Assembly: GCA_964419615.1 (NCBI GenBank)
Contig: CAYQPU010000015.1
Location: forward strand, 1-36,469
Length of the DNA: 36,469 nucleotides
Origin: an uncultured Methanosarcinales archaeon
GTDB taxonomy: Archaea; Nanobdellota; Nanobdellia; Woesearchaeales; JAGVZT01
Reading direction: 5' to 3'
Shown here: positions 5,449-15,856 of the stretch, one piece after another
Layout: every line of letters begins with the position of its first letter
How positions within the stretch are numbered: the first letter of the stretch is position 1
Notes under the pieces: generated by a model
Told to the model about the DNA's origin: nothing
The model's input: the letters and a program-made list of their open reading frames with translations, nothing else
The model's database searches: none
Translations under genes and position numbers: made by a program

Positions 5449-6057
5449 TTAAACCCAGTATGCTCCAAGTACAACAAATTTATCAAACCTATTCTCCTCT
5501 GATGAATTTTCAACTTCAAAAACTTGTCCTGGAAAGGGATTTTCTTCATTAACTATCATTTGATATCCATTATCTGAGAGTAATGCAATCAAGCCTACAT
5601 ATCCAACATAGTTTGCATGAGTCATAAAAAAGATGCCTCCATCTGTCATTACTTTTTCTGTTTCTTTCAAGATGATATCCCAGACTCTTTTTTGATCTCG
5701 TGAGACTTCAGGATTAGGATGTCTAATCACAACAAGACCATATTGATCATCCACTAATTCAGTTATATTTTGTGCATCACCTGGTATAAAAGTTGCAAAA
5801 TCACCCAAAGCTCTTTTTGCTATTGAAAAGTCTTCTTCTGTTTTGTCAACACAAGTGAGACTTAATGTTAAACCAAATTGTTCACGATATACTTTTGACA
5901 AAGGAGTAAATTCACCAATGCAGTTATTTCCACAGCCTATATTAAGTACATTTGGATTTTTTTGTGGATTAAAGCGAACTTGTTCAAAATAATTTTGAAA
6001 TGTTGATTGCAAGTGCTGCTGACCTCTAGAGTATTTCATTAAAAGATCTATATCCAT
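5449..6057 (-). CDS. Class I SAM-dependent methyltransferase-like protein
   Basis: Motif I VLNIGCG, acidic end of strand 2 (TCVD) and GDAQ; substrate unknown. Confidence 0.65.
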   Translation of the reverse strand: MDIDLLMKYSRGQQHLQSTFQNYFEQVRFNPQKNPNVLNIGCGNNCIGEFTPLSKVYREQFGLTLSLTCVDKTEEDFSIAKRALGDFATFIPGDAQNITELVDDQYGLVVIRHPNPEVSRDQKRVWDIILKETEKVMTDGGIFFMTHANYVGYVGLIALLSDNGYQMIVNEENPFPGQVFEVENSSEENRFDKFVVLGAYWV

Positions 6058-9564: not shown

Positions 9565-9915
9565 ATGAGAAAACAACTTACTGATACCTTGATGGATTTT
9601 AATGGCGTGATAGTTTATTATCACTTTTTTAAAAGTGCTATAGAACCTGGTGCAGCTACTTTTAATTATATTGCATGTAAAGACTCAGAGATAATTGGAT
9701 GGGGATCAAGAGACAATAATCTTGATTTTGAATTGCAGGTTTTGGCTTTTGGACTTGATTTTGATACCTTCACTATCCAAAATAGAATTCCTTTTGTTGA
9801 TGACCCAAAATTAAAGCATCTTGTAGATGTAGATAAAAATAATGGTTATACTGATTTTTATAGACCCTTATTAAAAAGTGAAATTCCAGAGTTATTGCAA
9901 CCTTATATTAAGTAA
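9565..9915 (+). CDS. Hypothetical protein
   Basis: 116-aa ORF preceded by the TATA-like cttaaata; no recognised motif. Confidence 0.6.
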   Translation: MRKQLTDTLMDFNGVIVYYHFFKSAIEPGAATFNYIACKDSEIIGWGSRDNNLDFELQVLAFGLDFDTFTIQNRIPFVDDPKLKHLVDVDKNNGYTDFYRPLLKSEIPELLQPYIK

Positions 9916-9964
9916 GAATTCCCAATACAGAATATTTATATAATTCTAGATTGTTGTTTTTGGT

Positions 9965-10684
9965 ATGATAATTGATTATAATCAAGTTGACATCTGGTCA
10001 AGTGGTGTTCTCACAAAAGATGTTGAAGATTGCATTCTGAATCTAGACCAGTTGAATAAAGATGAACTAACTTGTGTTCTTAAAAAGATTGGAGATATTT
10101 CTGGTTGTCCTATTCCAGATCTTGTTGCAAAAAGAATGGGAACAAAACAAGCAATAAAGTATCTTTGTAGTTTGGTTTGTGATTACAATTTAATAAAGGA
10201 CTTGCTTGACAAGAATAATGTTCCTTGGAAAGCTGTTTGGGGAAAACAAGAAAGCAGAAAACCAAATGAACCTGCTGGTGAATACTCTTCAAGAATTCCT
10301 AATCAGATCATAGAGAAAAAGATTGTTAGAGGTCCTGGTAAGTATCATGAGTTTTCAATAACAAGGTTACTATGGTTTGATAAGTGTAATAAAAATTTAA
10401 TTCAGAAGCAACAACTTAATGATTTGATTTTGAAAAGTGAGTCTATTGTTGATTTTCATGTGCGATTTGTCATTATGTTTGCTGATTTGTACAAAGAGAT
10501 TGATAACTTAACAGAGATCTTGATGCTTGGTGTTGCTCATGAAGGTTTTTTTAAGCAGAATAATTGTTTTTTAGAAGTTAAAGATACACTCAATAAAATA
10601 AAAAACAGAGCTGAAAGTGAGAATTGGTTTTTAATTCTCGAAAATGACGTTAATCAAGTATTTAATTCTTCCACCACCATTTAA
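9965..10684 (+). CDS. Hypothetical protein
   Basis: 239-aa ORF preceded by the TATA-like tttatata; no convincing motif. Confidence 0.65.
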   Translation: MIIDYNQVDIWSSGVLTKDVEDCILNLDQLNKDELTCVLKKIGDISGCPIPDLVAKRMGTKQAIKYLCSLVCDYNLIKDLLDKNNVPWKAVWGKQESRKPNEPAGEYSSRIPNQIIEKKIVRGPGKYHEFSITRLLWFDKCNKNLIQKQQLNDLILKSESIVDFHVRFVIMFADLYKEIDNLTEILMLGVAHEGFFKQNNCFLEVKDTLNKIKNRAESENWFLILENDVNQVFNSSTTI

Positions 10685-10762
10685 TTCCACTGTAGAGTGG
10701 TAATTTAGTAAAAAGTTATTTATACTAAACTCAATTCCAAATATACAATTAATATATGAAAA

Positions 10763-12289
10763 ATGGCAAAACCAATTTTATTAGTAAGCGATGATTATAC
10801 TGACATGAGAAAAGGTCAGTTAAGAACCATAGCTAGTTTTGGCAGAGATATTCATGTTGCAACTACACTTGAAGAAGCTCTATATGCTATTGATTTCAAC
10901 CATTATAAAGCAGTTGTGATTGATAGATTGCTTGGGAAAAAACCCACAACCATGACAGCAAGGCCACAAGAATATCCACCAAGAAGAGATGCTAAGATAG
11001 ATTTTAGTGATTATGGTTTAGATTTTCTTGGAATGCTTCTTAAAGCTGATACTCCAAACAAGGATGTCTCCGTAGCTATGAGCACCTTAAATAGGATCAA
11101 ACCGACTGAGCTGGCTGAAATTGAGGAGATTTACGAAGTCCATATTGATATTGGAGATTTGGTTGAGATAAATCAACCAGAAATGTCATTTAATCTAATA
11201 CCCAAGATAAAACGTCTAACAGGAGATGAATCAGGAAGAGAGGATGGAATGATACAATATCTTAGGAGGAGAATTCCAAAAGATTATGATCCAAATAGTT
11301 TATTTTTAGAGTTAGATTTAAAGGTTTTAGTGAGTGAAGGGAGTCCGACTCCTTCTCTTGATTCTGAAGGACATTTAGAAATGGTTTATGCAAAACCAGA
11401 TGTTGATGTTATTGAAGCTTTAACTCCATTTGAAGCTTTATTTTTGGAGGATGATTTACTTGATGATGTGATTGTTAAGCACGCTTTAATGGATTTATTT
11501 GATGGTAGAGAACCAGGATTTAGTGGAGCGATTCTTTGTGGTCCTCCAGGTACAGGCAAATCTAAGATTATGGAAGTATTAAGAGACACTTATGAAAATA
11601 CTGGCGCCTATGTTGAAGTTATTGATCTATCAAAAATAGAGAGTCCATTTGTTTCAGAAACTCAAAATAGATTGTCAAGAGCTCTTTCAAACTGCAATGA
11701 GGAAGCTTTCAAGAGACAAAAAGCTTCATTATTGTGTATTGATGAGGGCACTAATTTTGTTGTTGATCCAAGAGACGGTGCAAGATCTACAGCAAAATAC
11801 TATCAAGGAATCCTTGACACTTGGAAGCGACATATTGGGAATAATAGAGAAACTGTTATTTGTATTGCCACAAATGAAATGCCTGAATCCTTTGATGATG
11901 CTTTGACACGTGCGGGCAGACTCACAGTTTTATATGTTGCCTATCCTACTCCTCAGAAAAAATCTGAGATGTTTGGGTATTTTATCCCTCTTTTTGTTAC
12001 CAATGGTGAGGACAATATCCCACTGTTAATTCCTAATGAAGAAGAGTTAGATTACTTTGCTTCACTAATCCCTGATGGCCATGGTGCAGCTATTGAGGAA
12101 ATCTCCAGAACATATGTTTCACATGTTGAAAATACACTGTTAAAGGATAAATCTGGCAGCACAAATTTATTGGGTGCACTTAGGGCAGGTACACAAGTGA
12201 ATCAGAAAGATGTCCAAAGGATGATTAATCCAGATAATTTTGCAGATTATATTCAAACATGTGTCGGGCAAAGATCACAAAATCATTAA
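10763..12289 (+). CDS. Receiver(REC)-like domain fused to a classical-clade AAA+ ATPase
   Basis: N-terminal ILLVSDD...TLEEAL...AVVID54...GLDFL...VAMST. C-terminal Walker A GPPGTGKS, Walker B LLCIDEG, sensor-1 ATN and SRH DDALTRAGR. Confidence 0.85.
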   Translation: MAKPILLVSDDYTDMRKGQLRTIASFGRDIHVATTLEEALYAIDFNHYKAVVIDRLLGKKPTTMTARPQEYPPRRDAKIDFSDYGLDFLGMLLKADTPNKDVSVAMSTLNRIKPTELAEIEEIYEVHIDIGDLVEINQPEMSFNLIPKIKRLTGDESGREDGMIQYLRRRIPKDYDPNSLFLELDLKVLVSEGSPTPSLDSEGHLEMVYAKPDVDVIEALTPFEALFLEDDLLDDVIVKHALMDLFDGREPGFSGAILCGPPGTGKSKIMEVLRDTYENTGAYVEVIDLSKIESPFVSETQNRLSRALSNCNEEAFKRQKASLLCIDEGTNFVVDPRDGARSTAKYYQGILDTWKRHIGNNRETVICIATNEMPESFDDALTRAGRLTVLYVAYPTPQKKSEMFGYFIPLFVTNGEDNIPLLIPNEEELDYFASLIPDGHGAAIEEISRTYVSHVENTLLKDKSGSTNLLGALRAGTQVNQKDVQRMINPDNFADYIQTCVGQRSQNH

Positions 12290-13950: not shown

Positions 13951-14707
13951 AAAAATTAATGGAAAGGATTTTGAATACTACATTGGTGGAAGAGGAAGAA
14001 AATTATTGTTCTTGCATGGCATGGGTGCAACACCTATGTGTTATGATGAAACTTTGGAGTTATTATCTCAAAATTTTAAGGTGATTGCTCCGAGTATTCC
14101 TTGCCATGGTAATAGTGAAAAGATTGATGAGTTTAATTTAGATGGAATTAGTGATTTACTGATCAAATTTTTAAGAGGACATAAATGGGATGATTTTATT
14201 GTTGCTGGTAATTCCATGGGAGGTTTGCTATCAATGTATCTTGCAGTTAAGTTAGAAAAGGAGGTTAAGCATTTGATATTGGTTGATTCTGCTGGTTTTG
14301 ATGAGCACAAACCAATCCTAAGATATATTCTAGGGATTATTATGGCTCCATTTACAACCCTTGGAACAACCTTGGGAAAAGGTATGGGGAAACGATTTAA
14401 GAGGCTGATCAGGTCTGGAAAAAAATATATTCCAAATGCTATTAAATGTTTAAGAAATGACCATTTCTTAGATTTTGCCAAAGAATTGGTTTTAGAAGAT
14501 CACACAAATGTTATGAAAAAAGTCAAATGCAAAACATTAATTTTGTGGGGATCTTGGGATGATGCTGTTTCAGTTGATGATGCCTATGAAATGAATAAAT
14601 ACATTAAGAATTCAAAGGTGATTGTGATAGATAGGTATGCTCATTGCTGGCCTGTTGTTGATTGTGAAAGGTTTTTAAAAGAGGTTACAAGTTTTGTTAA
14701 TAGTTAA
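13931..14707 (+). CDS. Alpha/beta hydrolase
   Basis: FLHG oxyanion motif, GNSMGG nucleophile elbow, WGSWDD acid and HCWP histidine. Confidence 0.92.
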   Translation: MLKPYIEKINGKDFEYYIGGRGRKLLFLHGMGATPMCYDETLELLSQNFKVIAPSIPCHGNSEKIDEFNLDGISDLLIKFLRGHKWDDFIVAGNSMGGLLSMYLAVKLEKEVKHLILVDSAGFDEHKPILRYILGIIMAPFTTLGTTLGKGMGKRFKRLIRSGKKYIPNAIKCLRNDHFLDFAKELVLEDHTNVMKKVKCKTLILWGSWDDAVSVDDAYEMNKYIKNSKVIVIDRYAHCWPVVDCERFLKEVTSFVNS

Positions 14708-15228
14708 CTTGGAGGAATTCGACGATTTGATACTGCCATTAATTTATCCTCAAAACCAAATAGATCTTCAAAAGTGTTATAGATCATTTGATCAATCCAG
14801 TTCTTACCTCTTTCTTTATCAAACAGAGGATGAGATCCAGGAAGAACAGAAGGAATCGCATATTCAGGACTATCAAAAACGGTTTTCATAAATTCATTAT
14901 AATACACCATACCTGTCCATCCAATTAAACTAAATTTCCTAAGATCAACAACTGGCTTATTATTTTCATCAAAAACTTGAATATACCAATCACCTATGTT
15001 TGCTCTATATTCAGGATAATCATTTAGAGCTGATTTAATACCAGCTTCAATATACGGCCTGAATTCAATTGTACTTAGTGGTTGTGGTAGATCTTCCATA
15101 CCAAAGACTTCATCAACATAAGAAATTCTCCTTGACCCTTGTTTTTTTAGATCTTCATCAAGTTCTAACAAATATGCCCAACTAATCATAAGAATTGGGG
15201 AATCATCAATAACTACTCTGTGTCCCAT
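14704..15228 (-). CDS. Hypothetical protein
   Basis: 174-aa ORF, codon usage like its neighbours; no recognised motif. Confidence 0.65.
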   Translation of the reverse strand: MGHRVVIDDSPILMISWAYLLELDEDLKKQGSRRISYVDEVFGMEDLPQPLSTIEFRPYIEAGIKSALNDYPEYRANIGDWYIQVFDENNKPVVDLRKFSLIGWTGMVYYNEFMKTVFDSPEYAIPSVLPGSHPLFDKERGKNWIDQMIYNTFEDLFGFEDKLMAVSNRRIPPS

Positions 15229-15274
15229 AATATCTAAAGAAGTATGTTAATTATATAAATTTTGCTTAATAAAA

Positions 15275-15778
15275 CTAACCTTCTTCACGTATTCCTGTTA
15301 TTGGAGGTATTGATAATTTTTCTGTTAAAGTTTGGTAGGCATTGTCTGTATATTCACTGCAAATTCTAATTAAGGCGTCAATTTTATTCCAATCCCCAGC
15401 ATCTGTATAATGTAGTAATTGTTCTGTAACAAGTTTTTCAGAAGGAAATGATTTTCCAATTCCAGCATTTTTCAGTTCACTTCTAATACTCTGGATACGG
15501 TGTTTTTCATCTGCTTTTATTGCTAGTATAGCAACATTTTCTAAGACAGACCATACTTCATCCTCATCAAAATTTGCACATAAATCTACTACATACTGAG
15601 AACCACTCCCATTGGTGCCAAATAAAAATCCCAGGAAGTTATCATAACCCTCAAGAGTTTCTTCAATTTTTAAGTATTGTCTAAATTTCTGAAGAATTCC
15701 TTGTTTAAATCGCTCCTCTGAATCTGCATCAATTGCTTTTTCGTGTAGCAGGTCATATTTTCCGTTTACGCTTACCAT
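15275..15778 (-). CDS. Hypothetical protein
   Basis: 167-aa ORF, likely helical; no recognised motif. Confidence 0.65.
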   Translation of the reverse strand: MVSVNGKYDLLHEKAIDADSEERFKQGILQKFRQYLKIEETLEGYDNFLGFLFGTNGSGSQYVVDLCANFDEDEVWSVLENVAILAIKADEKHRIQSIRSELKNAGIGKSFPSEKLVTEQLLHYTDAGDWNKIDALIRICSEYTDNAYQTLTEKLSIPPITGIREEG

Positions 15779-15856
15779 ATCTAGAGGAAATCTAATAAAC
15801 TATAAAAAATATTGGTATAATAATTTATTCTGAATAACTAAATTATATATATTCTA

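Follow-up and report, generated by a model that had tools for sequence, protein, structure and literature searches.

The stretch of DNA analysed here, called the window throughout, covers positions 1–36,469 of contig CAYQPU010000015.1 in GenBank assembly GCA_964419615.1 (contig C15 of the host genome), which is recorded as an uncultured Methanosarcinales archaeon and placed in the order Woesearchaeales. The host genome measures 1.48 Mb, is 99 % complete and has a GC (guanine plus cytosine) content of about 34 %, and the gene content of the window is archaeal, including Spt5-NGN/KOW, FtsZ, ribosomal protein L11 and FKBP26. Positions 10763–12289 of the plus strand hold a complete open reading frame (ORF), P0001, encoding a protein of 508 amino acids that consists of a receiver-like N-terminus, a linker and a classical AAA ATPase. 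An earlier description made from the letters of this DNA and its translations (the sequence-only reading) had taken P0001 for a receiver domain fused to a proteasome/Cdc48-like AAA+ ATPase; the ORF was confirmed, and all the motifs quoted in that description are found at their positions. The segments and residues to which the following paragraphs refer are given below in window coordinates, each with the evidence used to place it.

10763–11221, plus strand: receiver-like region, residues 1–153 (receiver (REC) hidden Markov model (HMM), hhalign, controls, reverse search)
10790–10795, plus strand: D10-D11, on the acidic pair at the end of beta1 (hhalign and HMM alignments; the HMMER and hhalign registers differ by one residue)
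10922–10924, plus strand: D54, on the phospho-acceptor Asp at the end of beta3 (hhalign and HMM alignments)
10934–11008, plus strand: insert of about 25 amino acids, residues 58–82, rich in Pro, Arg, Lys and Thr, in the beta3-alpha3 loop (unaligned by the REC profile; coil in AlphaFold2)
11084–11086, plus strand: T108 of VAMST, tentatively aligned with the conserved Thr/Ser at the end of beta4 (HMM and hhalign alignments)
11174–11179, plus strand: Q138-P139, at the conserved Lys-Pro position (near-global hhalign only)
11222–11377, plus strand: linker, residues 154–205 (AlphaFold2 predicted local distance difference test score (pLDDT) below 50)
11378–11947, plus strand: pre-AAA segment conserved in the family (YAKP, LTPFEALFLEDD) and AAA large subdomain (family alignment, PF00004, AlphaFold2, Foldseek)
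11540–11563, plus strand: Walker A GPPGTGKS, residues 260–267, with K266 (family alignment)
11642–11659, plus strand: pore loop 1 SPFVSE, residues 294–299 (family alignment, motif reading)
11729–11746, plus strand: Walker B LLCIDE, with IDE at 326–328 (D327 and E328 invariant in the family)
11873–11875, plus strand: sensor-1 N371 of ATN 369–371 (invariant in the family)
11909–11920, plus strand: arginine fingers R383 and R386 of LTRAGR 381–386, second region of homology (SRH; invariant in the family)
11948–12286, plus strand: helical lid and family-specific C-terminal helical extension (family alignment, AlphaFold2, motif reading)

The C-terminal half carries the only Pfam match of the protein, a single AAA domain (PF00004, residues 257–389, 46.9 bits against a cut-off of 21.2). 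Within Walker A, residues G260, G263, T264, G265 and K266 are invariant across the family alignment. Pore loop 1 retains the aromatic residue F296 and has Ser in place of the usual Gly, so that SPFVSE stands where most relatives read K-W/Y-V-G, and the variant pore loop that the sequence-only reading had pointed out is borne out. In the lid, GHGAAIEE occupies the place where a sensor-2 Arg would be, as in classical AAA proteins. The nearest PDB sequences are AFG2/SPATA5, Cdc48/p97, VAT and Vps4 with E-values of 1e-12 to 1e-6, while an AlphaFold2 model built from a seven-sequence family alignment reaches a pLDDT of 80–93 over residues 206–508 and is matched by Foldseek to p97 D1, Vps4 and proteasomal Rpt chains (E about 1e-11, probability 1.00). 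The earlier assignment of this half to the classical clade therefore holds in both sequence and fold matches. As Walker A and B, sensor-1, the SRH arginines, the aromatic pore loop and the lid are all kept, residues ~206–508 are, judged by their conserved residues, a catalytically intact and competent classical-clade AAA ATPase. By analogy with this clade, P0001 most likely forms a ring that threads or remodels protein substrates.

With the classical-clade proteins that are its top sequence and fold matches (Cdc48/p97/VAT D1, AFG2/SPATA5, Vps4/CdvC and Rpt/PAN), P0001 shares PF00004, Walker A and B, the sensor-1 Asn, the two SRH arginines, an aromatic pore loop 1 and the lack of a sensor-2 Arg. 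It differs from them in having only 18–31 % identity, a single ring domain, no HbYX tail and a separate place in the tree. Its scores against TIGR01243 (Cdc48) and TIGR01242 (PAN) are 32.9 and 16.5 bits, compared with cut-offs of 802 and 500, its C-terminus reads ...RSQNH without an HbYX motif, which is likewise missing from its relatives, and it shows no sign of a double-psi barrel, an MIT domain or a coiled-coil-OB N-domain. Maximum-likelihood analysis groups P0001 with 12 relatives in a clade supported at 100/100, which a long branch sets apart from the Cdc48 D1, Cdc48 D2 and PAN-like modules of the host; the terminal branch of P0001 (2.0, median 0.85) is long, and its placement within the family is unsupported by the tree. 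The host encodes its own Cdc48 (755 amino acids) and PAN-like ATPase (390 amino acids) as well as 20S alpha and beta genes, and there is no detected link of P0001 to the proteasome. The label of a proteasome/Cdc48-like protein is thus weakened by the single AAA domain, by scores far below both cut-offs, by the missing HbYX motif and by the host's own Cdc48 and PAN-like proteins. The NtrC, NtrC1 and DctD proteins also combine an N-terminal receiver with a ring ATPase and are the known precedent for a receiver that controls AAA+ assembly; they belong, however, to another AAA+ clade (PF00158) and carry a GAFTGA loop and a C-terminal helix-turn-helix (HTH) domain. P0001 has neither PF00158 nor HTH matches at E<=1 and no GAFTGA motif, in agreement with the earlier statement that it is not an NtrC-type activator.

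Searching 400 genomes of the same order returned five strong homologues (E 1e-37 to 1e-52, 388–423 amino acids) and three weaker ones, all of which match residues ~200–500 of P0001 only, and no homologue was found in eight genomes of the same genus and family. A wider scan with two family-specific motifs, covering one genome per species (185,579 species), gave 11 related loci with tblastn E-values of 2e-17 or better. Six of these records are titled Candidatus Woesearchaeota, and the others Nanoarchaeia, 'archaeon' or 'uncultured Methanosarcinales'. The AAA module of P0001 hence belongs to a family that is small, uncharacterised and almost confined to records of Woesearchaeota. Its single-AAA members (loci L003, L015–L018 and L065–L073) are 31–39 % identical to P0001 over residues ~205–508 and have in common with it, among other elements, a pre-AAA segment bearing aromatic-x-K-P and L-x-P-[LF]-D as well as the helical extension at the C-terminus. 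They are about 360–440 amino acids long, and their N-termini are short, variable and unrecognised by Pfam; none has the receiver-like 200 residues, and a REC domain is absent from all 12 of the other members that were examined. When residues 1–215 were compared exhaustively with 1.84 billion representative proteins by phmmer, only the query itself was retrieved. Within these searches the fusion, whose architecture the sequence-only reading had not recognised, is unique, and its N-terminus has no detectable relative.

The origin of this N-terminus was investigated with an order-specific REC HMM, for which 30 REC domains from the order were used and which was run with filters off. It aligned residues 6–59 at 10–14 bits (E 1e-5 to 1e-6 at Z=1, one target), extended to VAMST (residues 104–108, downstream of GLDFL at 85–89) once the insert was removed, and gave P0001 the second-best score among the 3264 ORFs of the genome. 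With hhalign, residues 1–135 reached a P-value of 1.3e-4 and a probability of 54 %, which improved to 1.1e-5 and 82 % when the 25 residues of the insert were taken out. The hhalign score of 29.3 compares with a mean of 12.3 (standard deviation 2.5, maximum 21.9) for 150 shuffled sequences and with a maximum of 22.0 for 149 natural N-termini of the same genome. In the reverse direction, residues 1–135 searched against the 400 genomes gave seven weak matches, three of which are genuine stand-alone REC proteins that score 40–109 bits against the REC HMM and align in register over beta1–beta3. As receivers make up only about 0.2 % of the genes (our estimate from about 2.3 matches per genome), this enrichment lies far beyond chance. 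Each of three profile alignments places D10/D11 and D54 at catalytic positions. Taken at the sequence level, these results support REC ancestry for residues 3–60, and up to about residue 108 with the insert removed. The CheY pattern that had been claimed for the first 150 residues hence stands above chance for beta1–beta3, or for beta1–beta4 without the insert, whereas Pfam does not match it and the fold is not confirmed.

The best reverse match, with 37 % identity over residues 5–59, belongs to an atypical stand-alone REC subfamily of Woesearchaeales, whose own HMM scores 16–17 bits over residues 4–60 of P0001. Like P0001, the member L058 resembles a receiver over beta1–beta3 only, and its Pfam Response_reg score of 29.7 bits falls just under the cut-off of 30.2. 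The L058/L087-like proteins differ from P0001 in being stand-alone proteins of 120–140 amino acids with TDG and G-x-Y-x-x-G-x-S-x-E-P motifs, both absent from P0001. The L058-like profile did not carry the match past residue 60. Members of this subfamily are L058/L087 (G331:C2:25428-25811), L088, L089, L091, L092 and L101, with TDG located after beta3 and G-x-Y-x-x-G-x-S-x-E-P at beta4; the Pfam scan covered L058.

Beyond beta3 the alignment depends on how it is made. T108 aligns only with the insert removed or in near-global mode, and a local alignment of its part by itself has a P-value of 0.16. Near-global hhalign places G131..Q138-P139 on the GAxDYxxKP consensus, so that the conserved Lys would be Gln138, an assignment that is positional only because the alpha4-beta5-alpha5 region is without REC signal. 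No alternative Lys was seen at the right spacing after beta5. The insertion after D54 and the missing conserved Lys had both been remarked upon in the sequence-only reading and are both seen in this alignment. The low-confidence AlphaFold2 model of the single sequence shows the element order beta1-alpha1-beta2-alpha2-beta3, a loop at 59–83 and alpha3-beta4-alpha4. Two other candidates were rejected for this part of the protein: residues 100–215 bear no relation to the beta-rich N-domain of the L003/L018/L020 subgroup, and the match of residues 125–194 (window 11135–11344) to a MYST/KAT8 chromo-barrel (1wgs) is not significant (E 0.2).

No HisKA match was found in the 99 %-complete genome, in a search that did not include Hpt, and no protein scores above the PF00072 cut-off; the genome-wide look for kinases that had been suggested earlier therefore produced no histidine kinase of this type. 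HATPase_c matches belong to GyrB, TopoVI-B, MutL and two paralogues of 180 amino acids consisting of HATPase_c only. As MutL accounts for the only such match within the window, the earlier statement that no histidine kinase lies there is correct. The two paralogues (G000:C22:34-585 and G000:C43:9437-9982, both on the minus strand; L011 and L014) score 57 and 28 bits, and no conserved His is common to them over the 50 N-terminal residues compared; their role may be that of minimal or non-canonical kinases or of a different sort of GHKL ATPase. An ORF of 120 amino acids at G000:C4:14358-14720 on the plus strand (L001:1447-1809) is the genome's best PF00072 match with 17–18 bits, which is below the cut-off. 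It reads LIVEKKEK near its N-terminus, where the acidic pair of a receiver is expected, which suggests a second degenerate receiver. An acetate kinase is encoded in the genome, so acetyl phosphate is a conceivable phosphodonor. Across the order, PF00072 occurs in 107 of 151 sampled genomes, among them the same-genus genome; this tally takes in the unpublished genomes G118, G127 and G138, and without them amounts to 104 of 148. The order as a whole is not poor in receivers, and it is this genome that lacks canonical REC and HisKA proteins; the assumption that the lineage has little two-component signalling is thus not confirmed.

Misassembly does not explain the fusion, because the same ORF, identical in 507 of 508 residues, occurs on an independent 2.1-kb metagenome contig in ENA. 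The two copies differ by one residue, too little for a selection test. GC content and GC at third codon positions are alike in the three segments of the gene (receiver-like, linker and AAA), and codon usage measured against the host's long ORFs gives a strong frame-0 signal in each of them. The exonuclease and PKD-lipoprotein genes on either side of this region are syntenic between the window and genome G001 of the same genus, whereas the slot between them is filled in G001 by a glycosyltransferase, a 263-amino-acid ORF and a membrane transporter-like protein; P0001 and the ORFs of 116 and 239 amino acids that precede it in the same slot are absent. Since different genes fill this slot in G001, P0001 is considered an accessory gene in a variable region, and the slot looks like a replacement hot spot. 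The corresponding intervals are 9565–12289 in the window and 6995–9660 in L056 (G001:C2), between an RNase_H_2-type exonuclease and a PKD/Big_9 lipoprotein, with the G001 genes being a GT2 glycosyltransferase, the 263-amino-acid ORF and a membrane protein of 391 amino acids.

Upstream of P0001, a 78-nt gap follows the preceding ORF and contains a possible promoter element about 40 nt ahead of the ATG.

10719–10724, plus strand: TTTATA, a possible archaeal TATA box (read from the sequence of an AT-rich genome)

Scans of P0001 and its neighbours with Pfam, NCBIfam, PHROGs and PADLOC identified no named family more specific than generic AAA and matched no defence system, and a survey of 13 family loci revealed neither conserved neighbours nor orphan partners of the upstream ORFs of 116 and 239 amino acids. 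In two related Woesearchaeota genomes (L065 3794–6013 and L074 3730–6082) the family gene directly adjoins an ORF in convergent orientation, probably an FtsZ gene since blastp clusters it with a fragment of the FtsZ ORF found in the window; in the window itself, FtsZ is located 4.4 kb downstream of P0001. The AAA gene of L074 is split into two short ORFs and is likely a pseudogene. Elsewhere in the window, two small minus-strand ORFs of 174 and 167 amino acids at 14707–15832 lack a Pfam match and, at the nucleotide level, any match in contig G001:C2 of the same genus, which is syntenic elsewhere. A 201-amino-acid ORF on the minus strand at 5449–6057, also without a Pfam match, shows a weak PADLOC mad2 match (E 1.1e-5, 22.5 bits).

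We consider it somewhat better than even, at roughly 55 %, that P0001 joins, in this species only, a domain derived from a receiver, and probably independent of phosphorylation, to an accessory, fast-evolving AAA remodeller. In that one species, a member of the single-ring classical AAA family would have acquired an N-terminal domain that goes back to a CheY-type receiver. The AAA module, if it behaves like other classical AAA proteins, would form a ring and remodel protein substrates or exert a pull on them. The receiver-derived domain, in which the Asp pocket (D10/D11, D54) and probably T108 are kept and which is divergent beyond recognition after beta4, would be a phosphorylation-independent pseudo-receiver, a reading based on Gln138 at the Lys position, the lack of HisKA and the lack of any PF00072 match above cut-off. 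Situated where classical AAA proteins carry their N-domain, it may serve as a regulatory, oligomerisation or partner/substrate-binding module and would not be the output end of a two-component system. In classical AAA proteins, the N-terminal position is taken by substrate- or adaptor-binding N-domains, and it is also from here that the receivers of NtrC1 and DctD govern the assembly of the ring; by analogy, N-domain-like binding and control of ring assembly are both plausible for the receiver-like part.

Several observations weigh against this interpretation. Searched genome-wide, the REC HMM match has an E-value of only 0.085, and neither residues 1–215 nor residues 1–150 match Pfam Response_reg (PF00072) even at E<=10. 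Taken alone, the alpha4-beta5-alpha5 region gives no REC signal (local P 0.16 to 0.32). AlphaFold2 assigns residues 1–205 a pLDDT below 50 both in the full-length run and in the run of the N-terminus only, the latter averaging 34, and Foldseek finds for the N-terminal model only generic Rossmann-like matches that are not significant (E >0.2). No conserved neighbour of P0001 hints at a substrate. Finally, as the Asp pocket is retained and acetate kinase is encoded, acetyl phosphate could still phosphorylate D54. The missing Pfam match, the second half without REC signal, the low pLDDT and the Foldseek result, together with the empty phmmer result and a word-index search of residues 1–135 that gave no match at E<=10, would also fit an N-terminus that is no receiver at all, but an unrelated N-domain particular to the lineage, of alpha/beta type or partly disordered, in which convergence or chance makes the first 60 residues look REC-like. 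We regard this as doubtful, although worth keeping in mind, for the hhalign score exceeds those of all 150 shuffles and 149 natural controls, three of the seven weak reverse matches are receivers in register in genomes where receivers are so rare, and two independent REC profiles put D54 on the acceptor Asp.

The retained pocket leads to the opposite alternative, a genuine phospho-accepting receiver gating the AAA motor, in which acetyl phosphate or a non-canonical kinase would phosphorylate D54 and thereby switch assembly or ATPase activity, much as happens in NtrC1 or DctD, though here with a ring of the classical clade. D10/D11, D54 and T108 aligning with catalytic positions, the acetate kinase that makes acetyl phosphate a plausible donor, and the two small HATPase_c-only proteins all fit such a switch; we nevertheless hold it to be unlikely, given that the Lys position reads Gln, that the insert sits beside the acceptor Asp, that the genome contains neither HisKA nor a canonical REC partner system and that the HATPase_c proteins share no conserved His in the N-terminal parts compared. 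Of the phosphorylation- or ligand-gated remodeller that the sequence-only reading had proposed, the joining of an AAA module to receiver-like sequence thus stands, whereas the phosphorylation gate is weakened by Gln138, the insert, the lack of HisKA, a half domain without REC signal and an unproven REC fold. Bolder still would be to see in P0001 the first receiver-gated classical-clade AAA unfoldase, with a Lys-less receiver sensing acetyl phosphate or a ligand in cis in a DPANN archaeon devoid of histidine kinases, which we deem a long shot; if true, a receiver-gated Cdc48-like ring would tie the metabolic state directly to protein remodelling. The least credence is given to the view that P0001, lying in a variable region, is a chimera in decay or without function and that its fusion serves no selected purpose. 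Such decay would account for the unrelated genes found in the slot of the same-genus genome, the long branch, the singleton architecture and the fragmented relative L074, but it sits poorly with a frame of 508 codons that is intact in two assemblies in DNA of 34 % GC, and with host-like codon usage and the conservation of all catalytic AAA residues.

Known systems offer partial precedents for the pseudo-receiver fusion that we favour. The sigma54-activator clade is known to contain receivers fused to AAA+ motors, the receiver protein CpdR works with ClpXP in trans, and the N-domain of KaiA is a pseudo-receiver that was kept after loss of its phosphotransfer residues. To our knowledge, receivers serving unfoldases are known only as separate adaptors, namely RssB and CpdR. 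These cases resemble P0001 in that a receiver fold acts as a protein-protein adaptor for an unfoldase or is kept without phosphotransfer residues; they differ in that RssB and CpdR are separate polypeptides acting on ClpX and KaiA is a clock protein, whereas the receiver-like part of P0001 is fused in cis to a classical AAA module. RssB, for example, is a receiver protein that functions in trans as an adaptor for the ClpXP unfoldase (PMC7226468), and a census of archaeal two-component systems mentions AAA only for NtrC-type REC-AAA-HTH proteins (PMC5847659). In the literature we found no description of a REC domain fused to a classical AAA module; domain-architecture databases were not covered, so the uniqueness of this class is not established.

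The case is limited to one species, a degenerate receiver with an unproven fold and an AAA family without a known substrate, and its value therefore lies mainly in being a lead for structural and biochemical work and a pointer to an uncharacterised AAA family that is nearly restricted to Woesearchaeota records. A receiver-derived domain in cis on a classical Cdc48-like ring would be a different way to regulate a protein remodeller, and the fusion would show how a genome-reduced archaeon recycles signalling domains after the loss of its kinases.

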